A stretch of DNA of 64,000 nucleotides from a virus (IMGVR_UViG_3300009593_000014:21155-85154); one strand, 5' to 3'; positions 34,425-53,930 are shown, counted from the stretch's first letter. A program made the numbers and translations. The notes: generated from the sequence alone by a model not told the origin.

Positions 34425-34431
34425 AAAAATT

Positions 34432-35613: not shown

Positions 35614-36292
35614 AAATCGTGCCCAACGACTACCTATGTGGGAAAGTCAACTATCAGAACTAACAAAAATGCGACCCGATGACTCTTTTGAGCTATCTGT
35701 TTACGAAAACGACTCAGATGATGATTCCTTGGCTACTTTGATGTCTTTTGGTTATGAAGGATTTGACGCTGTTCGTATAAAAACCGAAACACTTAACACA
35801 CCATATTTTGGAAGCGTTCAGGACTCAGAAAGAGTGCGACTGCTTGCCAATGCAAGAAACCAATGCTTAGACTATCACAATCTAAAGAAATTTGATAAAA
35901 TAATTTTTGTTGAACCCGATGTTGAATATAAGATACCAGAAGTGTTGGAAATAATTAACCTAGATGCTGACATAGCTTCAGGCAAGACAGTGACCTTCGG
36001 TTCAGATATAGTTTACGACACTTGGGCAACCAGACTAAACTGGCTAGATAAGGAATGGGACAACACATACACCGGATCAGGCTGGATAAAAGTATGGTCA
36101 ACATTTAATGGGTTCTGCGTATACAACGCCGAGCCGTTTTATTTACACAATGCAAGATTTTCAGGCGGGGATTGTGATACAGTACAGATATGTAAAGAAT
36201 TTCAAAACTTAGGGTATAGTGATGTTTACTTCAATATGGACATTGAAATACTTCACCATACTGACAGTACTGAATATCAAATAGGAATATAG
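35573..36292 (+). CDS. GT-A fold glycosyltransferase
   Basis: YENDS.D, LANARN, EPD and STFNG motifs. Confidence 0.65.
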   Translation: MECCVNFLICTIVRNRAQRLPMWESQLSELTKMRPDDSFELSVYENDSDDDSLATLMSFGYEGFDAVRIKTETLNTPYFGSVQDSERVRLLANARNQCLDYHNLKKFDKIIFVEPDVEYKIPEVLEIINLDADIASGKTVTFGSDIVYDTWATRLNWLDKEWDNTYTGSGWIKVWSTFNGFCVYNAEPFYLHNARFSGGDCDTVQICKEFQNLGYSDVYFNMDIEILHHTDSTEYQIGI

Positions 36293-36305
36293 AAATGAGG
36301 AGGAA

Positions 36306-37298
36306 ATGATAGATGGGTTGGCTTTACACCCCCGACACTTATCAGTCTGCTCTGGTATCGGGGGAATCGACCTTGGACTTGAAGCAGCACTCGGAATTCG
36401 CACCGTGGGTCACATCGAAAGGGACGCTTTCGCAGCGAGCATTCTCGTGGAGAGGATGGTTGAACAGACCTTGGATTTCGCGCCTATTTGGGACGATATC
36501 AAGACCTTCGATGGCTCAGGATGGAGTGGATGTGTGGACATCCTATCTGCGGGAATCCCATGTCAGTCTTTTTCGCATGCCGGTAACAGGAAGGGAACAG
36601 ATGACCCAAGATGGCTTTGGCCTGACGTTTATAGAATTAGTAAGGACTGCAGGCCGGGCCAGATCTTTATTGAAAACACACCGGGACTTGTCAAAAAAGG
36701 ACTTTATGAAGTTCTCTTCGATCTTGCCGAAATGGGGTACAATGCGGAATGGGGAGTGTTCAACGCAAGTGACGCATCCGCGCCCCATAGAAGACAACGC
36801 TTATTCCTTTTGGCCCACCACAGCGAACTCGACCTACAGCCATGGATTGAACAGGCCAGCGCTTGCACAGAGCTTAGATACAGTGCCATGGGCGACTCCT
36901 ACTGCGAATATCTGGAAAGAGACTGGTCCAAACATAGACTGGGATATGCGAGACCAGAACAGGATAACGAATTTAGCGGTTCAGGCAAAGCTATGGCCTA
37001 CTCCAATCACAGTGGACAGTTTAGGAGGCCATCGTCTGACCGGGAAAAACAAAGACGCAAAAAACATTGGTCTTTCTCTTACGGACGCTTCCCACCTGCA
37101 CGAAACGACGCAGAAGGATGGTCAAGATGGGTCGAACGAGGACTACCTAAACCCATCATTCGTGGAGGCAATGATGGGTCTGCCCATAGGGTGGACAGAC
37201 TTCGGACCCTTGGAAATTCAGTAGTACCACAATGCGTAACATTGGCATATACTGTATTATTAGATAGAATGTCTAGTGAACCACAACCAGTGAGGTAA
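36306..37298 (+). CDS. DNA cytosine-5 methyltransferase (alpha chain)
   Basis: SGIGG (I), GIPCQSFS (IV), ENTPG (VI), HRRQR (VIII) and LGNSV (X). Confidence 0.9.
   Translation: MIDGLALHPRHLSVCSGIGGIDLGLEAALGIRTVGHIERDAFAASILVERMVEQTLDFAPIWDDIKTFDGSGWSGCVDILSAGIPCQSFSHAGNRKGTDDPRWLWPDVYRISKDCRPGQIFIENTPGLVKKGLYEVLFDLAEMGYNAEWGVFNASDASAPHRRQRLFLLAHHSELDLQPWIEQASACTELRYSAMGDSYCEYLERDWSKHRLGYARPEQDNEFSGSGKAMAYSNHSGQFRRPSSDREKQRRKKHWSFSYGRFPPARNDAEGWSRWVERGLPKPIIRGGNDGSAHRVDRLRTLGNSVVPQCVTLAYTVLLDRMSSEPQPVR
36313..37224 (+). CDS. Overlapping +1-frame ORF: C5-MTase beta chain (motif IX)
   Basis: Nested 303-codon ORF with WPTT/WATP/WPTP repeats and LNPSFVEAMMGLPIGWT; true start uncertain. Confidence 0.7.
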   Translation: MGWLYTPDTYQSALVSGESTLDLKQHSEFAPWVTSKGTLSQRAFSWRGWLNRPWISRLFGTISRPSMAQDGVDVWTSYLRESHVSLFRMPVTGREQMTQDGFGLTFIELVRTAGRARSLLKTHRDLSKKDFMKFSSILPKWGTMRNGECSTQVTHPRPIEDNAYSFWPTTANSTYSHGLNRPALAQSLDTVPWATPTANIWKETGPNIDWDMRDQNRITNLAVQAKLWPTPITVDSLGGHRLTGKNKDAKNIGLSLTDASHLHETTQKDGQDGSNEDYLNPSFVEAMMGLPIGWTDFGPLEIQ

Positions 37299-37440
37299 AA
37301 ATGCCAAAAGTAAATACAAAGAAAAAAAAGCCAATCCTTGCACATTGCTTAAGGTGTGGATGGTATATTGGTAGAAAGATACTATCAAGGGACAACAACG
37401 AATGCCCGATATGCGAAGAAGAGATCGAGGAGAATTTTAA

Positions 37441-38085
37441 ATGGATGGAAGAATAGGGGCATACTTTAATTCAAAATTTGTAGAACTTATTGACCCTAGC
37501 CTTGTAAATACCATATTTGAATTAGGAGCAGGAGATGGGCTAGACGCTATTAAGCTGAGTGAGTTTTATGACGCTGATGTTTGTGGCTTTGAATGCAACG
37601 CCAACCTATTAAAAATATGTACAGATAGGATTCTTGATTTCGATAGGGTTCGTCTAGAGCCTCAAGCAGTCTGGAGCGAAACAAAGATAATACCTTACTA
37701 TCCAGTCATTAACGGAAACGACTCTGCTTCGTCTTGCTTCATGGCGGCTGATGCCTATCCATACGAACACTATATACAAGAAGAAACAACAGTTGAGGCA
37801 ATAGCCCTAATGGACTTCATAGATAGTACAGATATCAAACCAGACATGCTGTGCATCGATCTTCAGGGGGCAGAAGAGCATGCGCTCATAGGTATGGGAC
37901 AGTACTTGGAAGATGTAAAGTATATAATAACAGAAGGACAGACCTCCTGCATGTATCACGGAGCATCAACAATCTTTGATATAGGACACCTACTGACTCA
38001 GTGCGGTTTTGTAATGAAACACTCCGAGTCAGTAAACGAATGGTACGGAGATTATTTATTTGTAAACGAAGAGAAAGTGAATTAA
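37441..38085 (+). CDS. FkbM-family methyltransferase
   Basis: ELGA..G, FECN and IDLQGAE motifs. Confidence 0.85.
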   Translation: MDGRIGAYFNSKFVELIDPSLVNTIFELGAGDGLDAIKLSEFYDADVCGFECNANLLKICTDRILDFDRVRLEPQAVWSETKIIPYYPVINGNDSASSCFMAADAYPYEHYIQEETTVEAIALMDFIDSTDIKPDMLCIDLQGAEEHALIGMGQYLEDVKYIITEGQTSCMYHGASTIFDIGHLLTQCGFVMKHSESVNEWYGDYLFVNEEKVN

Positions 38086-38086
38086 C

Positions 38087-38419
38087 ATGGAAGATATAAC
38101 ACACCCAGAAAATAATAACATTTCAAGAAAAGACGGAAGTCAATTCTGGTATGAACTTAGCGAAGCCAATCCTGATGCCATTCTTTTTGATGGACCGGGC
38201 GATGATGATTTTTTTGATTCATGCATCGTAGGTTACGCTTGGAGAATAAATATGGAACCTGTTGTTGTTTATGATGAAGAAAAAATGATAGAAGTAATGA
38301 TGTTTGAAGGAGAGCTATCCTATGAAGAAGCAGTCGAATATTTATCTTTTAATACTTTTGGCAGTTGGTTTGGAGATGGAACTCCTCTTATATTGAGATC
38401 ATCAAAGAATGTACTGTAA
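38087..38419 (+). CDS. Conserved phage hypothetical protein
   Basis: VVYD..YEEAVEY..FN..G.W.G..TP pattern. Confidence 0.7.
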   Translation: MEDITHPENNNISRKDGSQFWYELSEANPDAILFDGPGDDDFFDSCIVGYAWRINMEPVVVYDEEKMIEVMMFEGELSYEEAVEYLSFNTFGSWFGDGTPLILRSSKNVL

Positions 38420-39165
38420 TGAAGGAAGCGGAGTTTTTCTTAGGCTGCCCCGAGCCTTATTGGTTGCGTAGAGATGATGTCACTGGTCCCTTCTTTGTGT
38501 CCAGACCGAGATTAGCAAGGCTTAAGAATCTTCATAAATCCAAACACAAATGGGCACTAGATTCAGGCGGGTTTACGCAGTTACATCAGCATGGGGCTTG
38601 GACAATCTCCTCGCAAGAATATGCCAACTTTGTAAAAAGATGTGACGACGAGATTGGCAATCTAGAATGGGTAGCGCCACAAGACTGGATGTGTGAAGAA
38701 ACAGCACTTCGTAAGAGTGGGTTAACCGTTAAGGAGCATCAAGATCGAACGGTTGATAACTTCTTAGATCTTAGACAAAAACTAGGCTCACTTGTTATTC
38801 CAGTCCTTCAGGGGTGGGATCGTGATGATTATCTAAAGTGCTGTGATTTATACGAGAAAGCCGGTGTGGATCTATCTTTAGAAAATGTTATAGGCTTAGG
38901 AAGCGTCTGCAGAAGGAATGCAGACAAAGAAATATCTGAGATAATCGACACTCTGCAGCCACTTAATCTTCACGGTTTTGGAATTAAAGGAAAATCCTAT
39001 GTAGACAACTACAATAAATTAGTATCTGCAGACTCAATGGCTTGGTCATTTACCGCTAGGCATTCAGATCCATTGCCCAACTGTAGCCATAGGAAATGCA
39101 GTTGGTGCTATGAATATGCAGACCTTTGGAGGGGTCGGATACTGAGTAGACTTGCGCCTGTTTGA
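38419..39165 (+). CDS. TGT/DpdA-like (deazaguanine DNA transglycosylase-like) protein
   Basis: LDSGGF, QDWMCE, PVLQG, GLGSVCRR, LHGFG and SADSMAW; C-terminal Cys/His Zn site. Confidence 0.7.
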   Translation: MKEAEFFLGCPEPYWLRRDDVTGPFFVSRPRLARLKNLHKSKHKWALDSGGFTQLHQHGAWTISSQEYANFVKRCDDEIGNLEWVAPQDWMCEETALRKSGLTVKEHQDRTVDNFLDLRQKLGSLVIPVLQGWDRDDYLKCCDLYEKAGVDLSLENVIGLGSVCRRNADKEISEIIDTLQPLNLHGFGIKGKSYVDNYNKLVSADSMAWSFTARHSDPLPNCSHRKCSWCYEYADLWRGRILSRLAPV

Positions 39166-39211
39166 TATTCGGTGTATCATTGCATAGCAAGAAAAAGGAA
39201 GGAAGTCTATT

Positions 39212-39514
39212 ATGAGTGATATTTGCCCAGAAAGTATGGAAAAACTAGTATTTGCTGGTGAATCAATTACTATCAAGCTTGACTTTTGGTTCGATTCCGA
39301 TCATTTTGATGACCAAGAAGAGGTTGATGAAGCTATAAGCTTCTGTCAGACAGGAGAGTTCGCATTCTGGGTTCAAGAAGCCGCAGATGCTCTGGTAGCC
39401 TCCGCTATGCACGAGTTTACGAGCACATACTCCGACTCTCCAGTTGCGAACTTGGAAAAACCATTAGGCATTACGATGTCTGCAGATATAACTTATGGCG
39501 GACCTCGTGATTAA
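39212..39514 (+). CDS. Acidic hypothetical protein
   Basis: SD present; stop overlaps the next start. Confidence 0.65.
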   Translation: MSDICPESMEKLVFAGESITIKLDFWFDSDHFDDQEEVDEAISFCQTGEFAFWVQEAADALVASAMHEFTSTYSDSPVANLEKPLGITMSADITYGGPRD

Positions 39515-40314
39515 TGAGAACATTTAGCTTCGGTGGCGGTGTCCAATCAACTGCTGTATTGGCATTACAAGCTTTAGGCGAACTACCTAAACCATACGAT
39601 GTGTATTTGTTCTCCAACGTAGGCAACGATAGTGAAGATCCTGAAACTATATCTTACTTTCACAACCACCACCTGCCTTTTGCTGAGAAGCATGGGATAC
39701 GCATAATTGAATTAATCAAGGAAAGCCGGGGCAGAGAGAATGAGACACTATGGGAGCAACTTCACCGAATGGAAGTTAGGTCTATCCAGATACCTGCATA
39801 CAGGGTAGGAAAAGGACCCGGGGGTAGAAAATGCACCAGAGATTACAAGATTCGTGTAGTTAGGAAATGGCAAAGACAAAACGGATCATCTAAAGATAAC
39901 CCTGTAGTGATGGGGTTAGGAATTAGTGTAGATGAGATCCAAAGAGCACGAACCAGTTCCCGACATGAGGACCAGATACTAGAATATCCCTTAATTGACC
40001 TAGGAATGGACCGTGACGACTGCTTTGAAGTCATAAAAAGAGCAGGATTACCCACTCCTCCACGTTCAGCGTGCTTCTTTTGCCCCTTTCACAGTAAAAA
40101 AGCGTGGATAGATCAAAAAGAAAACCGTCCAGAGCTATTCGCTAAGTCAGTAGCGCTGGAGAAAGTCCTATTGGAACGGTGTGAAATACATGGAAAAGAA
40201 CCAGAATACCTTAGCAGATACGGTGTTCCTTTAGATGAAGCCTTCTCCGAATATGGAAACATCCCCGATGATGACGGTCCCGAAGGATGCGAAGAAGCAA
40301 GCTGCTTTACCTAA
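39514..40314 (+). CDS. PAPS-reductase-like PP-loop protein
   Basis: SFGGGVQS, CT...K, GIS.DE..R, YPL and SACFFCPF. Confidence 0.8.
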   Translation: MRTFSFGGGVQSTAVLALQALGELPKPYDVYLFSNVGNDSEDPETISYFHNHHLPFAEKHGIRIIELIKESRGRENETLWEQLHRMEVRSIQIPAYRVGKGPGGRKCTRDYKIRVVRKWQRQNGSSKDNPVVMGLGISVDEIQRARTSSRHEDQILEYPLIDLGMDRDDCFEVIKRAGLPTPPRSACFFCPFHSKKAWIDQKENRPELFAKSVALEKVLLERCEIHGKEPEYLSRYGVPLDEAFSEYGNIPDDDGPEGCEEASCFT

Positions 40315-40970
40315 TCGGCGGCGCGGCGGCCCCCCTTTTCTTTTTTTGAAAAAATTTTTATTTCTAAGTAACAAAACTTATTGCCAATTTTGGGCCGTGA
40401 CTTAGCATTCCCCCCATTCCCCCATCCCCATTGCCTTAAAAAAGCATTAACAACATCTTTTAAACCTTCCAGAAAATCAATAAAAATAATGTAGCGCAGA
40501 CATTATATAGCACCAAAATATTTCCCCACGACCCCTATCCCACAATGCTCTCACAGCCACACACAGCCCCTCTAAGGACATCCTACACACAACAGAGGTA
40601 GACACCCTTGAAGCAAGCCAAGCTAAGCAAAATACTCTGAAAAAATAAAAAAAATAACACCCCGAAAAAGGAGGCCCCGCCCCCGCCCCATAGAAGCATA
40701 ATTCCAAAAAAACAAACAAAGTTTTTCCAAAATTTAGTACATATTTAAGAAGACCTGCATATATAAAAATAAAAAATAGAATTACTGTACAACCAGTACC
40801 CATAACCCCACTACACGTCTACCCCCCTCCTCATAAGCTGTGGTTCGTGGCTCGCTCGCTCGCTTCCTTTAACATCAGGAAGATATAAGTTTGGGCTGGT
40901 AAAAAAATTAGTGTGTATTTATAACAGTTATTATGTTTAAAAATAAATAAAAGAAATTTGTGTTAAAAGG

Positions 40971-40998
40971 TTGACATAGTTGTTTGATGCTATATAAT
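40971..40998 (+). promoter_or_regulatory. Sigma70-type promoter
   Basis: TTGACA-N16-TATAAT preceded by an AT-rich UP-like tract. Confidence 0.7.
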
Positions 40999-41031
40999 GA
41001 ACTTATCAAACAAAAGGCAGAGGAGCCAACA

Positions 41032-41361
41032 ATGCAAAAAGCAATGCGAAATATGACATCAGGAAACAACATAGAATGGTTGTCATTAGGCCGTGAATTC
41101 AACACGGCACAGTTCACAGGAACTCTTACCCATACTAACTTAATGAATGGTCACAGAGACGGAAACATACTAGGTGTAACAACTATAGAAGATAACGTAG
41201 CAATCACTAACTACATACAGTTTCCACATACTGAATCAATCAATGAGTGGATGAACAAAGAGGTTACACTAACTGCCTCAGTCAAGACCAGAAGACTACA
41301 ACACGCAGAAGAAGAAACCTATCTTCACACTGCTAACGCTTGGTCAATACGCTTAGCATAG
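41032..41361 (+). CDS. Cassette cargo: hypothetical protein
   Basis: SD GAGGAG before ATG 41032; followed by a terminator. Confidence 0.75.
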   Translation: MQKAMRNMTSGNNIEWLSLGREFNTAQFTGTLTHTNLMNGHRDGNILGVTTIEDNVAITNYIQFPHTESINEWMNKEVTLTASVKTRRLQHAEEETYLHTANAWSIRLA

Positions 41362-41376
41362 TTAACCAAAGAATAG

Positions 41377-41410
41377 AGACCGGCCCTTATGGGTCGGTCT
41401 TTTTTCTTTT
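41377..41410 (+). terminator. Intrinsic terminator
   Basis: AGACCGGCCC-TTAT-GGGTCGGTCT plus T-run. Confidence 0.85.
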
Positions 41411-41651
41411 GTATAGGGTATTCGATAAGCACTAGATCCAGGAGCTCCGCCTATCTGCCTGTGGTTCGTGGCTCGCTCGCTCGCTTCCTTTAACGTCAGG
41501 AAGATATGAATGGGGCAGTAGCTAGACTTAAGTATGTATTTGTAACTAGATATATGGTTAAAAGAAATAGTTAAAGTTTTTAGTTGCAAGGTTGGTATTG
41601 ACTGTCAAATTTGTAAACTAGATATATCGGCAAGAGTAAAGGATAAAACAA

Positions 41652-41948
41652 ATGCCACTAATAATAATAAACAAGACAGAAGAAATACCGGAAGAATGGA
41701 AGCAGCAAGACGGAAGATACCAAACACCAATGGTAATGGTTGACTTTGGCAACGTGCACAGTAATGGTGGTTTCGGTACTCACTTAACATTGGCCCCAAC
41801 AGTAGAGACCAGCGAATGGCGCAACGCTTATGGAATAGAGTTCCATCATGATGCAGGCGCTTATCGTCAAGTAACATCTGCACCGTGTAAGTTTATCGGC
41901 ATAGCACAAAACGACGGTTCCATCTTCTGGACTTATATTCCACAATAG
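41652..41948 (+). CDS. Cassette cargo: hypothetical protein
   Basis: SD AAGGA; terminator at ~41961-41990. Confidence 0.75.
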   Translation: MPLIIINKTEEIPEEWKQQDGRYQTPMVMVDFGNVHSNGGFGTHLTLAPTVETSEWRNAYGIEFHHDAGAYRQVTSAPCKFIGIAQNDGSIFWTYIPQ

Positions 41949-42186
41949 GACAAAAGAGAGAAGCCGGCCCTTAATAGGGCCGGTTTTTTTCGTTATATAG
42001 GGTGTTCGAGAAGCGTCTATTATTGAAGCTTCCCTGTCTTGCTGTGGTTCTTGGCTCGCTCGCTCGCTTCCTTTAACGTCAGGGGAATAGTAGTTTGGGC
42101 TGGACTAAGATTTAATACATAAATGATTGCAAAACTAGACTTAAGACTATAAGATAAAAATATCAACAAAAATAAAGGATAAAGAT

Positions 42187-42363
42187 ATGACAATAACCAA
42201 TAAACAAGTACAGATATTCAACACGGTGGCTAATCAACCCCGCTGTTGGCACTGCGAGGAGGATCTCTATTCTGACCATGAGACCGCTCATAGAGAGTTC
42301 GTAATAACAATGCATCATGCCTTCCATATCGCGTGCTACTTCGACCACACAAACGATCAATAA
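42187..42363 (+). CDS. Cassette cargo: 58-aa CxxC...HxxC zinc-finger-like peptide (not in ORF track)
   Basis: MTITNKQVQIFNTVANQPRCWHCEED...HAFHIACYFDHTNDQ; SD AAGGA. Confidence 0.7.
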   Translation: MTITNKQVQIFNTVANQPRCWHCEEDLYSDHETAHREFVITMHHAFHIACYFDHTNDQ

Positions 42364-42518
42364 GGCTGTGTTTCGTGGCTCGCTCGCTCTCTCCCTTTAA
42401 CGTCAGGGGAATTTAGGCATATAGATACGGTGTTTTTAATAGGTATTTATTAAATGCTTGACAAGACTATAACTATTAAATTAATCTGTAATTTATAAGC
42501 AACAGATGAGGAGACATC

Positions 42519-42683
42519 ATGGCTAAATATAAAGAAACCAAATGGGATATAAAGCCTAGTTACGACTATGAGGGTAAATGGGAAGTGTTCCATATTGGAC
42601 ATAGTAACTACGTTCGTAGCGTACACGACACACACGCTGAAGCATTAGCAGAAGCGCGGAGACTAGACAGGGAGAATAGATAA
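42519..42683 (+). CDS. Cassette cargo: 54-aa protein (not in ORF track)
   Basis: MAKYKETKWDIK...HDTHAEALAEARRLDRENR; SD GAGGAG; TTGACA upstream at ~42458. Confidence 0.7.
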   Translation: MAKYKETKWDIKPSYDYEGKWEVFHIGHSNYVRSVHDTHAEALAEARRLDRENR

Positions 42684-42790
42684 TGTTAGATCCGATTTAT
42701 AGACGGCGTAGGATCGCTGTCAGCGCTTTATTGGCAGTGTTCGTATTCTGGTTCTCATATCTAGGCGGGGAACTGCTTAGTAGCCTTTAA
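42683..42790 (+). CDS. 35-aa YRRRR-TM membrane peptide (not in ORF track)
   Basis: TAATG coupling; MLDPIYRRRRIAVSALLAVFVFWFSYLGGELLSSL. Confidence 0.65.
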   Translation: MLDPIYRRRRIAVSALLAVFVFWFSYLGGELLSSL

Positions 42791-42989
42791 CCAGCAGGCT
42801 GTGTTTCGTGGCCCGCTCACTCTCTCCCTTTAACGTCAGAGAAACTATATACAAGGACATTATAGCTTTAATACATAATCCCCAACCGCTCGCTGTTGTT
42901 CGTTGGCTCGCTAAACCGCAAGATTGTGCATGCATGCGCAAAGGCTTTTAATAAACATTGGTGAATAGATAGAACTTAAAAATAATGAC

Positions 42990-43019
42990 TTGACTTGATC
43001 TAATCAGTTATGCCATAAT
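42990..43019 (+). promoter_or_regulatory. Sigma70-type promoter with extended -10
   Basis: TTGACT-N18-CATAAT with TG extension. Confidence 0.65.
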
Positions 43020-43040
43020 TTCTTTATGGCGATATCACCA

Positions 43041-43104
43041 CTACCAAACAGCAACGCCCCGCTCATCGTTGCAGCTCCGGTAGCAATTAGTAGAGCAGGA
43101 AGGA
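43041..43104 (+). ncRNA. Candidate 5' leader pseudoknot RNA (type-A copy 1; others at 45854-45916 and 48721-48790)
   Basis: Covarying P1, P2 and loop-to-3' pairing across three copies. Confidence 0.6.
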
Positions 43105-43115
43105 AACGTGATCTT

Positions 43116-43442
43116 ATGGCAACGGATTGGGGTCAAGCAATTGACCTATCCGAGATTGCAAAGTCTCGTCGTGGCGCAACAGCGACCTACGAGCAGGGAC
43201 TACTTGACGCACTTACTGAGGCATTCAGTAACGGTCAAGCACTTGCAGTGTCACCATTGGCAGTTCTTCAAGAGTCTTTTAAGACTGACGAAGAATACGC
43301 CAATGCGAAACAAGCCAACGCTGCAGAGATCAGGAAGCACTTCAACCGCTTGGTTGAATTGGGACTGATCGCTGACGGTTCAAAGGTGTCCATAAATTGG
43401 CACCCAGAGACCGGCGTTCCACAAGTTTCGCTTAAAGGGTGA
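43116..43442 (+). CDS. WHPE-family paralogue A1
   Basis: WGQAIDLSEIAKSRRGAT..INWHPETGVPQVSL; SD AGGAAGG; in-frame upstream ATG at 43026. Confidence 0.85.
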   Translation: MATDWGQAIDLSEIAKSRRGATATYEQGLLDALTEAFSNGQALAVSPLAVLQESFKTDEEYANAKQANAAEIRKHFNRLVELGLIADGSKVSINWHPETGVPQVSLKG

Positions 43443-43454
43443 TTCTCGGTCCAT

Positions 43455-43510
43455 CTGACTCTTAAACGAGGAACCGGAGTGACTAGCAAGCACTTGGCAA
43501 CAGAACAAAC
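43455..43510 (+). ncRNA. Candidate 3' RNA motif of type-A cassettes (others ~46263-46318 and 49156-49212)
   Basis: A 35-nt block is identical in copies 1 and 2; the stem shows compensatory changes in copy 3. Confidence 0.55.
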
Positions 43511-43516
43511 TACTAA

Positions 43517-43550
43517 AGAAGACCGGCTCGGGGGAGCCGGTCTTCTTCTT
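43517..43550 (+). terminator. Intrinsic terminator
   Basis: AGAAGACCGGCTC-GGG-GAGCCGGTCTTCT. Confidence 0.8.
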
Positions 43551-43787
43551 TGTGTGGGTGCATATCAGGAGCTGCAGCTGCAACGAGTTCTGCTGTTGTT
43601 CGTTTGCTCGCTAAACCGCCAGATTGTGCATGCATGCATGGCAATATTTAATACGAATAGTTATGCAGCTAGAACTTAAATAAGGATTATCTACTGTCGT
43701 AAAATTCAAATGTTGTTGTTTGTGTTAATAGTTGGATACGATCAGTTTTGTCATATTAAAAACATTTAACTTTGGAGGTTAAAAATT

Positions 43788-44297
43788 ATGAACGTTTACG
43801 GATCAGGAGGAGGGCTAGTAAATCTAAACGGTTTACATGATGGCGCAATGCCTCTTATGTGGAAATTAGCCTGTATACATATCGGGCTAGATATTGCACC
43901 CCTATTTAGAGGGTTCGCTATTGCTAAGACCCTTAATGATGTTTATTACGTCTACACCATGAATAGCGATAATGGTGTTAATTGGTGTATTGACTCATTT
44001 GTCGTCTATGACGAATATGGCGAGGGAATGCTGAACTGCCTTATGCACGTTCAGGCTGATGTAGCAGACCTACAAGAAGTAATAGATGGTGGCGGCAAAC
44101 GAGCGATATGGCTCGCTGACTACAATCCAGATAGCGGTGTTGACATTGGTTATGTAGATGAGAGGGAAGTAGAGGAAGCAGATATTTCTGTAGAAGATTA
44201 TGCCCGCTTCTATATCGGTCTTACCCAAGCGATCATTCAGCATGGCAATAGAGAAGATGGCGCTATCAGTTTTGATTGGACTAAGACAATTCCATAA
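43788..44297 (+). CDS. Cassette cargo: unrelated 169-aa hypothetical protein
   Basis: SD GGAGG; terminator at 44309-44348. Confidence 0.78.
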   Translation: MNVYGSGGGLVNLNGLHDGAMPLMWKLACIHIGLDIAPLFRGFAIAKTLNDVYYVYTMNSDNGVNWCIDSFVVYDEYGEGMLNCLMHVQADVADLQEVIDGGGKRAIWLADYNPDSGVDIGYVDEREVEEADISVEDYARFYIGLTQAIIQHGNREDGAISFDWTKTIP

Positions 44298-44599
44298 GGC
44301 ACCTAACAAAGACCCTCATGTTGCAGCTGCAGCGTGAGGGTCTTTTTTGCTTTATGGGGTCTTGTCTTGAGTGTTCGAGGAGCCACTATTCCGACCAGCA
44401 GGTGGAAAATAGGGCTGTTGTTCGTTTGCTCGCTAAACCGCAAAATTGTGCATGCGTGCATGGCAATATTTAATGCGAATAGTTATTCAGCTGGAACTTA
44501 AATAAGGATTACCAGGTTCGAGAAAGTTGGATGTTGTTGTTTATATTAAAAATATGTATCCTCGGATATGTCATATTCAACTAAGAGAAAGGTTATGAC

Positions 44600-44929
44600 A
44601 TGGCAACATTAGACAACTGGGGAGAAGCAATAGATCTCTCCGAAATTAAGAAAGCGAAACGGGGTGCGACTGTTCATTTAGAACAGGGGCTTCTTGACTT
44701 CCTTTCTAAAACTTTAAGTGCTGGTCAAGCAGTAGCACTTACTGGTTTCACTATTGACCCTAAAAAATTCCCTGATGAGAAAGACGCAGGCAATGAACGC
44801 CAGCGCATTGGGGCAGTTATTCGTCGGCATGTTAATCATCTTCGTGATGAAGGATTAATCCCTGATGAGAAAGTGTCTATTAATTGGCACCCAGAAGCGG
44901 ACTATCCGCAGATTAGTTTCAAGTCTTAA
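44600..44929 (+). CDS. WHPE-family paralogue B1
   Basis: RIGAVIRRHV..INWHPEADYPQISF; terminator at 44945-44976. Confidence 0.88.
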   Translation: MATLDNWGEAIDLSEIKKAKRGATVHLEQGLLDFLSKTLSAGQAVALTGFTIDPKKFPDEKDAGNERQRIGAVIRRHVNHLRDEGLIPDEKVSINWHPEADYPQISFKS

Positions 44930-45207
44930 CTAATCCACTCGCTTAAGGCCCTCATGCTCCGGCATGAGGGCCTTTTGCGTTTATGGGGTAAGTCCCAGGA
45001 CTAGAACGCTGTTGTTCGTTGGCTCGCTGACCGCCCAATTGTGCATACATGCGCGATGGTTTTTAATACGAATAGTTATGTAGTTAGTACTGAATTAGGA
45101 ACTATCGATAACCGAGAAAGTTAAATCGTTGTGTTTAGTTTAAAAGTTTGGTTACAATCTCAAGAGTAAACATAACCGCCACCAGATGTGGCAGAAAGAG
45201 AAAAACA

Positions 45208-45537
45208 ATGGCAACAATGGATAACTGGGGTGAAGCAATAGACATCTCAGAAATTAAGAAAGCGAAAAGGGGTGCAACCGTTCAGCTTGAGCAGGGGCTC
45301 CTCGATTTTTTGCAAACCACGCTTGGCGCTGGTCAAGCAGTGGCGCTCACTGGATTTCAGATAGACCCTAAAAAGTTTTCTGACGAAAAAGATGCTGGCA
45401 ATGAACGCCAACGTATCGGTGCAGTGATCCGTAGGCACGTTAATTATCTTCGTGATGAGCAACTAATAGCCAACGAAAAAGTGTCAATCAATTGGCACCC
45501 TGAAGAAGACTATCCTCAGATTAGTTTTAAATCTTAA
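45208..45537 (+). CDS. WHPE-family paralogue B2
   Basis: MATMDNWGEAID; promoter TTGTGT-N18-TACAAT; terminator at 45554-45585. Confidence 0.88.
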   Translation: MATMDNWGEAIDISEIKKAKRGATVQLEQGLLDFLQTTLGAGQAVALTGFQIDPKKFSDEKDAGNERQRIGAVIRRHVNYLRDEQLIANEKVSINWHPEEDYPQISFKS

Positions 45538-45928
45538 ATAGTCTCTTTCACTTAAAGCCCTCATGCTCCGGCATGAGGGCTTTTTGCTTTTTCCAACCAG
45601 CAGGTGGAAAAGTTGGGCTGGTAAAAGTTGGGGTTCTCATGGATTAAAGTTTGGAACTTTGCTAGTCCCAGGACTAGAAGCCTGTCGTTCGTTGGCTCGC
45701 TGACCGCAAAATTTAGTATGAACTTATGGCAATTTTTAATAGGAATAGTTCTGTAGCTAGTCCTGAACTAGGAACTATCGAGAACTTAAGAAAATAAAAT
45801 ATGTTTGAAAATATAAATTATGACGATAGGAATAAGGCATGGAGATATCACCACTCAATAGAACTAGCGCCACGCCCATCGCTGACGCTATTGGGCAACC
45901 ACTAGGGCAGGAAGGATACTTGATTGCA

Positions 45929-46258
45929 TTGGCAACTTCATGGGGGTCATCTATTGACCTTAGTGAGATCGTTAAAGCCTCTCGTGGCGCTACGGCGACA
46001 TATGAGGAAGGCTTGCTTGATGCTCTTGCTGAAACACTCGGTAAGGGTCAAGCATTAGCGTGCACACCTATGGCGGTACTTGCTTCTGACTACGCAGAAG
46101 AAGACGATTACCGCAATGCTAAGCAAACTAATGCGGCAGAATTGCGTAAGCACTTTAACCGCTTGGTGGAACTCAAAAAAGTTCCTGCTGGTTCTAAGAT
46201 TTCTATAAATTGGAATCCCGAAACCGGCGTGCCTCAAGTTTCGCTTAACAACAAATAG
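45929..46258 (+). CDS. WHPE-family paralogue A2 (WNPE variant)
   Basis: TTG start aligned to A1; in-frame ATG at 45839; terminator at 46322-46350. Confidence 0.82.
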   Translation: MATSWGSSIDLSEIVKASRGATATYEEGLLDALAETLGKGQALACTPMAVLASDYAEEDDYRNAKQTNAAELRKHFNRLVELKKVPAGSKISINWNPETGVPQVSLNNK

Positions 46259-46664
46259 GCAACTCACAATATGAGCAAGACTCGGAGTGACTAGCAAGCA
46301 CTTGGCAACAGAACAAAACTCAAGCCCCTCGCAGACGCGAGGGGCTTCTTACTTTCTATGGGTTAATAGCCTCGCCTCGAGAACTGTATCGCTGTTCCTG
46401 GATCTAGGGCTGTCGTTCGTTGGCTCGCTTCCTTATAACTTTTAACGGTAGGAAAAATTGTTGTTCTCCCTGGTATGAATTAAGTGGATATTTCAAAACG
46501 ATAGTTAATCGTCCTGGTCTAAGACAAAACACTAACTGATTAAGCAGCAGGAGCTGAATTAGGAACTATTGACTACCGAAAAAATTAAATGTTGTTGTTT
46601 ATCTTAAAAGCCTGTATCTTCATATATTCAATAAACAACTATTAAACCTTAAGGAGGTTTTGTT

Positions 46665-46985
46665 ATTGACAATCAATGGGGCGAGGCCATAGACCCCTCG
46701 GAAATAAAGAAAGCAAAGAGAGGTGCGACTGTTCAACTAGAGCAGGGGCTACTTGACTTTTTGCAGGAAATACTCAACAACGGACAAGCGGCACAAGTCA
46801 CGGCTTACAAGATTGATCATAAAAAGTTCAAGACTGAAGATGCTGTAGCCAATGAGAAACAAAGAATCGGTGCAGTAATTCGCCGTCACGTTTCTCATCT
46901 CCGTGATGAGAAATTAATCGCCAATGCTAAAGTTTCGACTAATTGGCATCCTGAAGAAGATTATCCGCAGGTTTCATTCTCGTAG
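46665..46985 (+). CDS. WHPE-family paralogue B3 with ATT start
   Basis: The frame extends upstream of ORF 46761 as IDNQWGEAIDPSEIKKAKRG; AAGGAGG lies 7 nt before the ATT; in-frame stop at 46650. Confidence 0.78.
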   Translation: MDNQWGEAIDPSEIKKAKRGATVQLEQGLLDFLQEILNNGQAAQVTAYKIDHKKFKTEDAVANEKQRIGAVIRRHVSHLRDEKLIANAKVSTNWHPEEDYPQVSFS

Positions 46986-47068
46986 ATAATCTTCTCCCTT
47001 AAAGCCCCCTCATAGGTTCCTGTCAGCACTAGATCCTTTCTGAGGGGGCTTTTTGGCGTTTATGGGGG

Positions 47069-47120
47069 AAGTTGGGGATCTCGTCTGTTTTTGGAAGTTG
47101 GGGATCTCGTCTGTTTTTGG
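47069..47120 (+). repeat. Perfect 26-bp tandem duplication
   Basis: aagttggggatctcgtctgtttttgg x2, just before header copy 12. Confidence 0.9.
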
Positions 47121-47325
47121 ATCTTGGGCTGTCGTTCGTTGGCTCGCTGACCACAAAATTGTGCATGCATGCATGACAATGTTTAATATGAATATTTCTG
47201 TAGCTAGTACTGAATTATGAACTATCGACTACCGAGAAACTTAATTAGTTGCATTTAGTTTAAAAGTTTGATTACAATGTCAAGAGTAAACACAACCGCC
47301 ACTATGTGGCAGAAGGATAAAGACA

Positions 47326-47655
47326 ATGGCAACAATGGATAACTGGGGAGAGGCAATAGACATCTCCGAAGTTAAAAAGGCAAAAAGGGGTGCGACTGTT
47401 CAACTAGAGCAGGGGCTACTTGACTTTTTGCAAACCACGCTTGGCAATGGTCAAGCAGTAGCACTTACTGGATTTCAGATAGACCCTAAGAAGTTTTCTG
47501 ATGAAAAAGATGCAGGCAACGAACGTCAGCGCATCGGTGCAGTAATTCGCAGGCACGTCAATCATCTTCGTGATGAGCAACTGATTGCTAACGAGAAGGT
47601 ATCCATCAACTGGCACCCAGAAGAGGATTACCCACAGATCAGCTTTAAATCTTAA
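47326..47655 (+). CDS. WHPE-family paralogue B4
   Basis: Protein near-identical to B2; promoter TTGCAT-N18-TACAAT; terminator at 47671-47702. Confidence 0.88.
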   Translation: MATMDNWGEAIDISEVKKAKRGATVQLEQGLLDFLQTTLGNGQAVALTGFQIDPKKFSDEKDAGNERQRIGAVIRRHVNHLRDEQLIANEKVSINWHPEEDYPQISFKS

Positions 47656-47972
47656 CTGGTCCCCTCGCTTAAGACCCTCACGCTACGGCGTGGGGGTTTT
47701 TTGCGTTTATGGGGTAAGTTTTGGAAAGCTGGTGGAATACCAGTCCCTCGAACACTATAAGCCTTGTCCCAGGACTAGAACGCTGTCGTTCGTTGGCTCG
47801 CTTCCCGCGAAAATTGTGTGCACATATGCACACATTGAGTACATATTTATAGTTAAAAATATATCTATTCCTGGTACTAGAAGTTTGGTAGTTGCGTTTG
47901 GCTTTGAACTATGTTTATAATTTAAAGAGTAAACACAACCGCCACCTTTGTGGCAGAAAGTAGAGTAAAAAC

Positions 47973-48302
47973 ATGAGTACCAATTGGGGGAGCGTTATAG
48001 ACGTTTCCGAAGTTCAGAAGGCAAGCAGGGGGGCGACTGTTCAACTAGATCAAAGCCTCCTTGACTTCCTTTGTGAAGCCTTAAGCGCCGGGCAAGCAGC
48101 CGCGCTTACTGCCTACCGAGTAGATCCTAAAATATTCTCTAGCGAGAAGGATATGGCAAACGAGAAACAACGGATAGGCGCGGTAATCCGTAGGCATGTC
48201 AACAACCTTCGTCATGATGGTTTGATAGCCGAAGGCAAAGTATCAATTCATTGGCACCCAGAAGGCGGATACCCGCAAGTACAACTGCTTAGTTATTCCT
48301 AA
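47973..48302 (+). CDS. WHPE-family paralogue B5
   Basis: IHWHPEGGYPQV; promoter TTGCGT-N18-TATAAT; terminator at 48320-48350. Confidence 0.88.
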   Translation: MSTNWGSVIDVSEVQKASRGATVQLDQSLLDFLCEALSAGQAAALTAYRVDPKIFSSEKDMANEKQRIGAVIRRHVNNLRHDGLIAEGKVSIHWHPEGGYPQVQLLSYS

Positions 48303-48801
48303 GCAGATCCCTTCACTCGAAGCCCTCACGCTACGGCGTGGGGGCTTCTTGGCGTTTATGGGTAAGTTTTCGGAAGCTGGTGGAAGACAAACGCTGTCGT
48401 TCGTGGCTCGCTTCCTTATAACTTTTTGCGGTAGGAAAATTTGTTATAGCTATTGCCTGACTTTAATGCATGCCCCGGAAAGTGTTTTGAAAGAATAATG
48501 CTCCCCCTGGTGGTTAAAACTTTTTAGATGGTGTATTAGTCCACCGAAGTTCAATTTTGTTTCAATGGTGGCTTCTCAGAACCGACTTTTTTGCATTAAA
48601 TGTCTTAATTGAAAGTATTTCAAATAAATAGACCTTCCTCGAATATTAAAGAATTTGAAAAAAAGTGTGTTAATTCTTGATTATGAAGGTAACTTATTTC
48701 ATATGGATATAACTTATTCACTTAGCAATCCGAGAAGCCCTATGATGACCGGCGCTCAAATAGCTATGCAACCAAATAGGTCTGTGGAGCATAATTCTTT
48801 T

Positions 48802-49143
48802 ATGGGAAATCCTATATCTGATGAGTGGGGCGAAATAATTGACCTCGGTGCCATTGCGAAATCTCGCAGGGGTGCCGTTGCTAGTTATGAGCAAGGCTTG
48901 CTAGATGCTTTGACCAAGGCTTTTAAAGCCGGTCAAGCTTTGAGTGTTACTCCGTTCACGGTTCTTGAGTCTGACTATAAGTCAGAAGAAGAATTTAAGA
49001 ACGCTAAGCAATCCTATGCAGCCGAAATCCGCAAACACTTCCGCCACCTAGTGGTTACTGAAGTAGTTGCGGAAGGTTCCAAGGTTGCCATTAATTGGCA
49101 CCCTGAAACCGGCGTGCCTCAAGTTTCGCTTAGAAGCTCTTAG
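48802..49143 (+). CDS. WHPE-family paralogue A3
   Basis: EWGEIIDLGAIAKSRRG..INWHPETGVPQVSL; in-frame upstream ATG at 48703; terminator at 49234-49262. Confidence 0.82.
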   Translation: MGNPISDEWGEIIDLGAIAKSRRGAVASYEQGLLDALTKAFKAGQALSVTPFTVLESDYKSEEEFKNAKQSYAAEIRKHFRHLVVTEVVAEGSKVAINWHPETGVPQVSLRSS

Positions 49144-49474
49144 ACTCATCAAAAACTGAACCCCTTGAGGGTGAACGGAGTCGCCACTAGCGACTTGGCA
49201 CCAGAACCAAACTAGTAAAGCGTAATATCCACCAAGCCCCTCGCAGATGCGAGGGGCTTCTTACTTTATAAATGTCTCAGCTGCAATTTTTATGTGGCAC
49301 CTCTCAAGGCTCAAGGGCTGTCGTTCGTGGCTCGCCCAATGACGGTGTTGAATACTAATGAAAATTAATATAACTATAGATTATATTGAGTAGACATATC
49401 CCTAGCGTAGCTTCGCTATCGTGCCGGAGTCACGATAGCAAAAATCTTTAATATATATTTATTATATAGAGTGC

Positions 49475-49790
49475 ATATTTTTCCCCACACACACCTTTTA
49501 TATGTTTTATACATAATTGGCCGGGTATTCCGAAGGAACCTGAAAGGCAAACTTGTGCCCGCAAAATATTATTAATCCTTAAGCATTATATTGTGTATAT
49601 ATTTTTCCCCACAAATAGCTTTTAGTTTGGCGGGTATTCCGAAGGAACCCGAAGGGCAAACTTGTACCCGCAAAATATTATTAATACTTAACCATTATAT
49701 TGTATGTATATTTTTCCCCACGAATTACTATTAATCTTTGCGGGTATTCGACGAAGGAGAAGGCGCAGCCCTTGTACCCGAAAAATTATT
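49475..49790. repeat. Three ~110-bp tandem units with branched GNA-triloop hairpins
   Basis: TTTTCCCCAC...CGGGTA-TTCCGAAGGAA-CCYGAARGG-...-TRCCCG; structured cores at 49522, 49631 and 49741. Confidence 0.85.
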
Positions 49791-50811
49791 GTTAATTATT
49801 TCCGTTAATTTAATGCGCTATTTCCTAACACTTTTTGTTATTAATAATTATTATTAAAAAGTATTATCTTTAATGGTTTGGCATTATAGGGTGGGTATAT
49901 ATTTCCCCACAAATATAAACTTTTTTTATATGTTCCAAGATGAACGGAATTAGTTATAGATAAGTGTGGGCGATATATATTACAAGTTACACCTATGTAA
50001 TTTTAAAGATAAGTATTGGAAGCTATTGTTAGAGATATAAGTTGGCGATTAGGTTGGCTGATAATATATAAAAGATATTTATATAGATATCCCTACACGA
50101 TAAATCTACTCTTTATTCCTTATCTGTTTTTATCAAAGGTATCTGTAATTAGTATAAATGTAGGTCTGAAATGTTAGAGTTATTTTCCCCCATTATTTTT
50201 ACGGTCCAAAGTTAAAGCAATTGAAACGGAATAAGTTTATTGCAATCTCTAAACGATATCTATCAGAGGAAGAAATGAAAGATAAAAAATATTAATAATA
50301 AATACTATTAACTAGAATTATTTTTATAACGGAGACATTATACGGCCCACATTTAATTCCCCGGCCAACCCTAATATAAATAAATAAAATATATATATAA
50401 TCGGACCTAAGTGTCTATTCTCTATAGAGAGAGTAACAATAAATACCCTCCCAGAACCTACATAAAAGCTTTAATAAATACAAAAAGAAATAAATAAAGT
50501 TTATTTAATTACAATACATCTGTGAAAACCTATTAAAATAGGTAATATTATAAGTGTTTGTTTTATATGACCAGTCAGATGCTATCGTTATTTTAATCTG
50601 AGAGGCTATTTAAGTGCTCTGTGGGGGGTTTTGAGATAGTTTTTATGTTTAATATCATCTAGGGAGAAACAATCTTCTCTATGGATTACTCTATGGGTTA
50701 TAACTATTCTTATCCCCCGATTTCGTTGTCGCACTTAATTTTAATAATTAGCAATTTGAATGCATGCCCGCGTTAGCTTTAATTTCTAATTCAGAATAAT
50801 AATTTTGGGCA

Positions 50812-53347: not shown

Positions 53348-53701
53348 CTACCTATAAAAACCTTCACCAGAAAATGGTACTAATTGTTCATCATCTAATC
53401 TAGACATATCAACTCCAATTAACTCTATTATCTCGCTGAGAGACATATTGTCAACATTAGGATTATCTTCTTGCTTCCACTTTATACTTCTAATCCTTCT
53501 TCTTTGATTTTCAGATAATCCACCCCATATTCCAAATTTAGAACTATTTCTTAAAGAATATTCTAAACAAGGTTTAGATACAGGGCAATTTTGACAAACA
53601 TATTTTACTTCTAATGTTCCTCCACGATCAGGAAAAAACTTATCTGTAGGGATATTCTCTTCTTTACATTTAGCTTTATCAAACCACCTGTTCATAACCA
53701 T
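53348..53701 (-). CDS. whiB: WhiB-family transcription regulator
   Basis: W...AKC..FFP..CxxCPV...C..GIWGG.SE.QRR. Confidence 0.92.
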   Translation of the reverse strand: MVMNRWFDKAKCKEENIPTDKFFPDRGGTLEVKYVCQNCPVSKPCLEYSLRNSSKFGIWGGLSENQRRRIRSIKWKQEDNPNVDNMSLSEIIELIGVDMSRLDDEQLVPFSGEGFYR

Positions 53702-53930
53702 AATTAATACCTGTTCTCTTTTGTAACCACATATAATCTCTTTCAACATTGAGTAAATAGTTATTAGCAGCAATTAAAGCTTTATTTCTACTTGGATAAG
53801 AACACGAACGCATACTGCATTGTTGTTCTATATCTTTATCTTTTTCTCCCAAGCAAAAATCAATCTCATAAAAATAAACTGTCTTACCATCATCATAAGT
53901 TACTTCAGTAATTTCAAAACTTTCTATCAT
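53679..53930 (-). CDS. Hypothetical protein
   Basis: SD AAGGA. Confidence 0.6.
   Translation of the reverse strand: MIESFEITEVTYDDGKTVYFYEIDFCLGEKDKDIEQQCSMRSCSYPSRNKALIAANNYLLNVERDYMWLQKRTGINYGYEQVV

Follow-up and report, generated by a model that had tools for sequence, protein, structure and literature searches.

Two described systems stand closest to the locus analysed here. In the Bacillus phage SPO1, the host takeover module, which covers genes 37-60, comprises, in the excerpted account on which we draw, small early genes whose promoters and ribosome-binding sites are typical of high expression (PMC6873191). In phages of the T4 type, the mobile regulatory cassettes known as PeSLs are repeated composite terminator/promoter sequences that flank variable small genes, as far as the cited extract describes them (PMC4122927). 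Here, we describe the WHPE array, a run of one-gene cassettes (40839-49335, plus strand) in an uncultured marine siphovirus, eight of which encode paralogues of a single small protein, WHPE. The window that we analysed is a stretch of 64,000 bases, positions 21155-85154 of the IMG/VR virus record IMGVR_UViG_3300009593_000014, and its coordinates are used below unless marked otherwise. The eight are real and functional genes, paralogues that share an uncharacterised domain of roughly 85-110 amino acids (aa). Their family is phage-restricted and multicopy; its single-gene cassettes occupy a fixed position in the genome and turn over as whole units. Nucleic-acid binding is our best, though tentative, guess for the function of the protein.

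Like the SPO1 module, the array gathers small genes close to one end of a genome arm, and is built here of one-gene units with terminators and promoter-like sites; its products measure 54-169 aa and hairpins follow all eight WHPE genes, although a consensus promoter scan was not enriched. The SPO1 genes are mostly unrelated to each other, whereas here eight of about 13 cassettes carry one family; the two loci have no sequence relation, and the host in this case is probably an actinobacterium and not Bacillus. The likeness to PeSL cassettes lies in the manner of change, in that close relatives differ by the insertion, loss, replacement and reordering of whole cassettes, and in repeat families (D2, D3, D6-D8, D10-D13) that flank the cassette genes and border the differences from two related loci, L034 and L035. 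Unlike the PeSLs, the array has a different repeat sequence and an added co-oriented header of 17-20 bases, and belongs to another phage group with another host; again there is no sequence relation, and recombination at the repeats is suggested here by comparison of relatives.

The WHPE genes, of which three are type A and five type B, lie on the plus strand within 43116-49143. A profile of the eight, run on all 85,154 bases of the record, matched every candidate (E 9e-60 to 6e-51) and found no ninth copy elsewhere; together with the alignment, this bore out the original prediction, made from the DNA alone, which had placed eight paralogues here in two subfamilies marked by shared motifs. Over about 108 aligned residues 27 columns are invariant, among them W-G..I-D, K..R-G-A, L-L-D.L, G-Q-A and W.P-E...P-Q. 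Relative to A1, identity is 67% for A2, 65% for A3 and 46-50% for the B copies. The type-B genes are B1 (44600-44929, 109 aa), B2 (45208-45537, 109 aa), B3 (46665-46985, 106 aa, ATT start), B4 (47326-47655, 109 aa) and B5 (47973-48302, 109 aa), and the type-A genes, in their short forms, are A1 (43116-43442, 108 aa), A2 (45929-46258, 109 aa, TTG start) and A3 (48802-49143, 113 aa). The basic arm that had been proposed is there, in that basic residues are confined to the arm and one helix, in proteins that are without exception net acidic (isoelectric point, pI, 5.1-6.5).

The length of the type-A proteins depends on the choice of start codon. Their frames are open for at least 30 codons further upstream, to ATGs at 43026, 45839 and 48703, which would yield 138, 139 and 146 aa for A1, A2 and A3, and public gene calls (P0002, P0003) use the long forms. 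Compared with L034, these 30 codons carry 3 base differences in 90 in A1 and none in 90 in A2, as against 23 of 324 and 25 of 327 bases in the domain, where the differences fall mostly at third positions; the upstream segment, an in-frame N-terminal extension or a 5' leader (43026-43115 in A1), is thus under constraint at base level. In A1, the upstream ATG follows, at a distance of 6 bases, a TTGACT-18-CATAAT site that carries a TG extension, and a AGGAAGGA stretch stands 11 bases before the internal ATG. In the type-A genes generally, the apparent basic patch upstream of the domain is encoded by purine-rich, Shine-Dalgarno-like sequence 11-12 bases before the internal start. We dropped the reading of the upstream frames as certain N-terminal extensions, because of the base-level constraint and because the 'GRKR/RGR' stretch reads as Shine-Dalgarno-like. 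From the sequence, type-A proteins of 108-113 aa and of 138-146 aa appear about equally probable. In frame, B3 offers none of the starts ATG, GTG and TTG downstream of the preceding stop, and it appears to begin at ATT, 7 bases 3' of AAGGAGG, the strongest Shine-Dalgarno sequence among the eight. Downstream, between stop and terminator, A1 (43475-43509) and A2 (46283-46317), whose proteins are 67% identical, share a stretch of 35 bases at 100% identity, and A3 carries a 71% copy of it at 49176 (repeat family D17).

The copies are old and under purifying selection. B2 and B4, for which about three residue differences and many synonymous ones had been predicted, differ at 3 residues and 46 bases, with proportions of synonymous (pS) and nonsynonymous (pN) differences of 0.60 and 0.016 and a ratio of nonsynonymous to synonymous rates (dN/dS) of about 0.013. 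This ratio is 0.03-0.04 for B1-B2 and B1-B4, 0.17-0.25 for A1-A2 and A2-A3, and 0.07-0.10 for B3 against B4 and B1 (0.07 against B4), giving 0.013-0.25 across all unsaturated pairs; most A-B pairs are saturated at synonymous sites. An assembly artefact, or a set of decaying and functionless duplicates, might be suspected in a repeat-rich region from a short-read metagenome assembly, where the copy count comes from short-read contigs with no long reads behind it and where B3 combines a missing canonical start with odd residues at two conserved places. The copies differ pairwise at 46-175 bases, however, and so are not collapsed or duplicated reads. Contigs of the probable source run span 43480-46312 (end of A1 to A2) and 47403-49400 (B4 to beyond A3), thereby crossing several copies at even depth and without contradicting joints within the array, and runs from two other studies, both marine and independent, hold pieces of it at 99% identity, in a comparison made with short-read contigs only, which drop rare forms. 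The runs listed for this DNA include no RNA run. The dN/dS values are far below 1, B3 included, and the same architecture recurs in 23 of 27 related loci. The suspicion as a whole, of artefact and of decay alike, is largely refuted and very improbable; the original argument for purifying selection over fresh duplication or artefact stands on the dN/dS values and the independent runs.

The cassettes form an array at the end of the higher-GC (guanine plus cytosine) arm of the genome, and each is closed by a terminator hairpin. A terminator scan placed hairpins after six of the eight WHPE genes: A1 (43516-43547, plus strand, 14 pairs of which 8 are G-C), B1 (44945-44974), B2 (45554-45583), A2 (46322-46347), B4 (47671-47700) and A3 (49234-49259). 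Folding gave those after B3 (47001-47052, -30.5 kcal/mol, z -4.9) and B5 (48319-48348, -27.7 kcal/mol, z -4.5). In all, the region holds 26 terminator-like sites against 8.5 expected. Evidence for promoters is weaker. A consensus promoter scan found 12 sites where shuffled sequences give 21.9, and for that reason a separate promoter for each copy is plausible at most; most cassettes nonetheless have a promoter-like site, within conserved upstream blocks that contain the -10-like hexamers TACAAT, TATAAT or TGTCATATT. The classes of these blocks cut across types A and B: B2, B4 and B5 have in common a TTGNNT-18-TAYAAT element and a small 5' hairpin whose stem is constant and whose loop varies (at about 45178-45192 in the 5' untranslated region of B2), and another block is common to B1, B3 and an unrelated gene of 169 aa, with TGTCATATT in B1 and the 169-aa gene. 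A perfect TTGACA-16-TATAAT site lies at 40971, and the TTGACT-18-CATAAT site of A1 at 42990. The claim that every copy is its own transcription unit is supported at the 3' ends by a hairpin after eight of eight copies and is weaker at the 5' ends.

The array is further marked by 15 co-oriented copies of a header motif, TGTNGTTCGT(T)GGCTCGC, which were found as 8 and 7 sites, all on the plus strand, where chance would give 0.24 and 0.15; applied to the whole record, a stricter pattern gave 11 sites, again all on the plus strand and all inside the array. The headers also flank cassettes of unrelated genes, at 40839-42816 and 43598. A degenerate header, with a core of roughly TGT.G...CG...CTGGCTCGCT, is present in the related loci L019, L026, L031 and L034, whose WHPE proteins are only about 40-55% identical, and its retention in diverged relatives indicates that the header is under selection of its own. 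In IMG/VR, the 15-base header pattern met no multi-site locus; its matches, at least 117, were single and chance-like. By eye, one header type is followed by a short stem whose sides covary (TTCCT/AGGAA, TCCCT/AGGGA, TCTCT/AGAGA), at 41469-41500, 42376-42407, 42809-42840, 46421-46462 and 48404-48445, three of these enclosing a kept TTTAACGTC loop, and the other type by a TTGTGCATGCATGCGCAA-like palindrome. Among the cassettes without WHPE, the 169-aa gene (43788-44297, plus strand) stands between A1 and B1 in a cassette of the same kind, with its terminator at 44308-44345; it has no Pfam or PHROG match and 82% base identity to L034. A 54-aa gene (42519-42683) is the only cassette gene with a family match, to DUF2188, barely above the cut-off (22.6 against 22 bits).

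Relatives of the array show that several copies are the rule. A scan of metagenome contigs found 27 marine loci with the family, many of them the same phage from different samples, and a profile search of six-frame open reading frames counted 2-8 copies in 23 of the 27, an answer in favour of the original prediction, which had named copy number in related phages as a check; in the four single-copy loci the match is near a contig end. In a tree of the 45 unique sequences among 87 full-length copies, the window's B copies group with two copies of L034 (support 100/99), their nearest relatives being single B-like copies in other lineages, and its A copies group with three L034 copies; lineage-specific expansions include a five-copy clade in L031 (99/97). 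By this tree, the A/B split is old and has been followed by expansion within lineages. The close relatives L034 and L035 share cassettes with the window at about 77-90% DNA identity, and the A1 orthologue in L034 is 95% identical in protein. L034 carries an extra A copy in place of B1-B2. In L035 (its positions 155-1405 against window 40838-42093), the order of two non-WHPE cassettes (genes at 40984 and 41652) is reversed, and there is no cassette matching the one at 42187. Comparison of these sequences thus shows whole cassettes gained, lost and moved between close relatives. Three more distant family members, with source coordinates 902-1264, 1481-1837 and 2399-2746 and one and the same length for their longest contig, suggest another array.

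The family is rare. Only 41 of 1,835,955,588 representative proteins matched it (E <= 0.001), and a second homologue search returned 37 clusters, none with a descriptive name. GenBank phages gave no match by blastn of the region or by tblastn with B1, P0041 and P0004; scans of IMG/VR with two family alignments gave pattern matches and no confirmed relative, in a search that may leave out near records; and species genomes held no match for the long forms. A match of the short forms to a Micromonospora genome was rejected, as it runs antisense inside a 1212-aa polyketide synthase frame in high-GC DNA. A literature search on marine actinophages with WhiB, takeover cassettes, PeSLs and Actinomarina phages met analogous systems and no description of the family, which for a nameless family is weak evidence of absence. 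So far, the family is found only in marine metagenomes and in one predicted viral protein.

An AlphaFold2 model of B1, built from 25 sequences (predicted local distance difference test score, pLDDT, 90.4; predicted template modelling score, pTM, 0.72), has the order beta-alpha-beta-alpha-beta-beta, an alpha/beta layout as originally described: short strands at residues 4-9, a helix at 29-40, a strand at 45-46, two helical turns, a 24-residue helix at 60-83 and a hairpin at 92-96/103-107. R21 and G22 in the N-terminal arm are invariant in all 25 sequences. On the long helix, a single stripe opposite the hydrophobic face, at wheel angles of 300-20 degrees, is made up of N65, Q68 and R75 (each in 23 of 25) and A72 (in 21 of 25); the hairpin is marked by W96, P98, P103 and Q104. 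A predicted B1 homodimer scored 0.21 against a mark of 0.42, a value that speaks neither way on binding.

Because its sequence and fold matches all stay below noise or threshold, the domain is not placed in any known family. The structure aligner's own noise mark is Z 8, below which a match may reflect only a common arrangement, and every alignment to a known structure lies below it. The best are the Stn1 winged helix (Z 6.0-6.2, root-mean-square deviation, rmsd, 4.5-5.1 over 67-72 residues) and the Pus7 insert (Z 6.0-6.2, rmsd 2.1 over 58 residues). The most recurrent neighbours, the IF3 C-domain, R3H and KhpB (Z 4.2-5.0), include folds with the same beta-alpha-beta-alpha-beta-beta order, the IF3 C-domain and R3H aligning over about 60-72 residues; for the IF3 C-domain, Z is 4.3-5.0 over 62-72 residues at rmsd 2.9-4.1 and 13-16% identity. 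Set against this likeness are Z scores of only 4.2-5.0, the lack of any sequence signal and the absence of the first strand from long cellular WHPE forms. Winged-helix proteins (the Stn1 C-terminal domain, ArsR/MarR, eS25) have a similar core order of helix-strand-helix-helix-hairpin; they differ in the rmsd of 4.5-5.1 A, in Foldseek E values of 0.09 or more, in a putative recognition helix that is 24 residues long here, and in that no winged helix-turn-helix Pfam family reaches its cut-off. Foldseek found nothing in the PDB at E <= 0.09 with either model, its weak rows (E >= 0.09) being eS25, SqrR, MarR and CodY. The only structure-level relative is BFVD entry A0A6J5QIK7, a 91-aa protein of an uncultured Caudovirales phage (E 5e-5, template modelling scores 0.61/0.72, 27% identity), which is also uncharacterised and adds range to the family, no function.

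Sequence searches were equally sparse. Pfam and PHROGs run on four copies, and Pfam on all 34 family members, gave nothing above threshold; the best winged-helix or helix-turn-helix match, HTH_62 in two of the 34, fell short of its curated cut-off (E 0.003, 17.9 against 27 bits). The best PDB sequence-profile match, at E 0.11, was a designed protein. IF3_C (PF00707) had no match in a six-frame search of the record, in which 10 of 14 control genomes matched, and is absent from the Pfam scans; T4 RegA/Translat_reg (PF01818) and Lsr2 (PF11774) had none in the record at E <= 1, and Lsr2 none in the Pfam scans. The ESM Atlas had no usable match for B1. A language-model search with A1 put phage translation repressors nearest among named clusters, at 0.77, a score scale on which shuffled proteins reach 0.8 a third of the time. 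The arm and the first strand are absent from longer homologues of cellular appearance, whose fusions point in no single direction: P0019 is joined to zinc-ribbon matches and P0014 and P0033 to sigma-70 region 4/GcrA-like helix-turn-helix matches, all below Pfam cut-offs, and others to fn3 (one), dockerin (one) or an uncharacterised 130-aa tail (about fifteen).

We tentatively favour a nucleic-acid-binding protein needed at high early dosage. Host RNA polymerase would then transcribe the cassettes early, and WHPE would be required in stoichiometric amounts, a need for quantity that could account for the several near-identical B copies. The protein would bind nucleic acid through the exposed Asn-Gln-Ala-Arg stripe on its long helix, with the invariant Arg-Gly of the flexible N-terminal arm as a second binding element, and types A and B would presumably recognise different targets, two targets being suggested by the age of the split. 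We infer the early timing, the role of dosage in the amplification and the binding itself alike, the timing from promoter-like sequences and by analogy. The Asn/Gln/Arg stripe, the Arg-Gly arm and the weak fold neighbours (IF3 C-domain, R3H, KhpB, Stn1 and winged helix-turn-helix proteins, all nucleic-acid binders) lean in this direction, and the sub-cut-off zinc-ribbon, sigma-70 region 4 and GcrA-like fusions may be counted with them. Several observations weigh against it: a net acidic charge in all eight proteins is unusual for bulk nucleic-acid coating proteins; no sequence family exceeds threshold, HTH_62 being the best, and no fold match exceeds Z 8, the best reaching Z 6.2 at rmsd 5.0; the fn3 and dockerin parts of long homologues do not suggest nucleic acids; the promoter scan was not enriched; and the gain and loss of cassettes between near-identical phages fits an arms-race protein equally well. 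Such a protein, a host-takeover or anti-defence factor that binds protein, is possible, and nearly as likely as nucleic-acid binding. Each small acidic protein would block or decoy a host protein, and the paralogues would cover target variants or escape host sensors. The acidic pI of 5.1-6.5 leans towards a host protein as the target, as does the arms-race-like turnover of whole cassettes, with shared cassettes at about 77-90% DNA identity and expansions specific to lineages; the genes are small, single in their cassettes and set among other orphan small genes; the layout parallels the SPO1 module, to the extent that the excerpted description covers it (PMC6873191); and the strong synonymous divergence of near-identical copies would lower recombination or nucleic-acid-guided targeting. 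Selection is, however, purifying and not diversifying wherever it is measurable, the most conserved exposed residues (Asn, Gln, Arg and the Arg-Gly arm) are classic nucleic-acid contact types, and the general Pfam and PHROG scans, none of them aimed at anti-defence families, turned up no known family of that kind.

Nucleic-acid binding also has two more specific and more novel versions, header binding, which is unlikely, and control of translation initiation, which is more unlikely still. For the former, the stoperators of mycobacteriophages and their repressor provide a model. WHPE proteins would be sequence-specific binders of the header motif, as DNA or RNA, and would serve as insulators, roadblocks or array organisers, an idea to which we give little weight. 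The 15 sites, all on the plus strand and confined to the array, and the 11 of the stricter whole-record pattern, all inside it, speak for such a pairing, as does the fact that the motif core is kept in relatives with proteins only about 40-55% identical, across which the Asn/Gln/Arg stripe is likewise invariant. Headers nevertheless also flank the unrelated-gene cassettes at 40839-42816 and 43598, and types A and B differ strongly on the very helix in question, whereas the header is uniform. It is improbable that WHPE and header form one self-contained system in which a new fold family binds the header, as DNA or as transcript, at every cassette border, and just as doubtful that the protein would then insulate the one-gene units and guide their shuffling; if true, this would be a protein-plus-site module maintaining the hyper-variable end of the high-GC arm in actinophages whose genomes have two GC parts. 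In the latter version, WHPE proteins would resemble the IF3 C-domain and modulate translation initiation, binding the small ribosomal subunit to favour phage messages with unusual starts. The recurrence of that domain among the fold neighbours (Z 4.3-5.0), the ATT start of B3, preceded by the strongest Shine-Dalgarno sequence of the eight, the position of the upstream ATG of A1, which is where a leaderless message would begin, and the proximity of phage translation repressors in the language-model search (0.77) all point this way; yet every one of the scores is at or below the tools' stated noise levels, and the IF3_C and Translat_reg profiles are without a match in the record. We regard this version as highly improbable.

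The record that contains the array has 85,154 bases and is classed as linear and 82% complete. Tailed-phage genes for a tape-measure protein, tail fibre, head decoration protein, protease, capsid and portal occupy the minus strand at 1-27153, and the record also encodes ribonucleotide reductase. The plus strand bears genes for glycosyltransferases, a DegT aminotransferase, a C5 methylase, a DpdA-like transglycosylase and a PAPS-reductase-like protein. The interval 33294-40314 contains a run of genes that are likely to modify DNA or sugars (GT4 glycosyltransferase, DegT aminotransferase, mannosyltransferase-like protein, C5 methylase, methyltransferase, DpdA-like transglycosylase and PAPS-reductase-like protein), and a DpdA-like gene, 57% identical, also stands upstream of the WHPE array in L026. 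The low-GC arm carries a gene for a WhiB-family transcription factor (53348-53773, Pfam E 4e-18), and WhiB is, in the excerpt cited, an actinobacterium-specific marker for assigning phage hosts (PMC7771536). Because of this gene and because the portal is 47% identical to Streptomyces phage portals, the host is likely to be an actinobacterium, and to judge from GC content it is probably a low-GC marine one.

Directly after the WHPE array, at 49300-50000, a few hundred bases suffice for GC content to drop from about 0.42 to 0.28. In all five long relatives examined, L031, L026, L019, L015 and L023, the array is followed by this step as well (0.60 to 0.39, 0.55 to 0.40, 0.57 to 0.40, 0.55 to 0.40 and 0.57 to 0.39), and their low-GC arms have homologous genes in the same order; a step of 14-20 points in all five, followed by homologous genes, indicates a conserved two-part genome composition and not a chimera. 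A literature search on GC steps found no paper describing this one. At the boundary, 49440-49930 on the plus strand holds four copies of a motif ending in TTTCCCCAC, in tandem units of about 110 bases with a hairpin-rich stretch after each. The motif recurs in L026 (at 5092, 6806, 7780, 7853 and 8622 of that locus), in part upstream of WHPE genes. Candidate identities are a promoter class, an origin and a set of small RNA genes; an Rfam scan matched nothing.

Small early phage genes of obscure function are common, and few of them are kept in 2-8 copies across a whole phage group, which makes the WHPE family stand out as important to the infection cycle of marine actinophages. The array offers a clear natural case of modular cassette turnover beyond the T4 group, and it adjoins a conserved GC step of 14-20 points. 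No cultured GenBank phage carries the family, and its hosts are probably uncultured. With a confident model, no fold match above noise and a well-defined conserved surface, the domain is a good target for structural and binding studies, and identification of its target, be it a nucleic acid, the ribosome or a host protein, would provide a first lead on how these phages take over streamlined marine actinobacteria.

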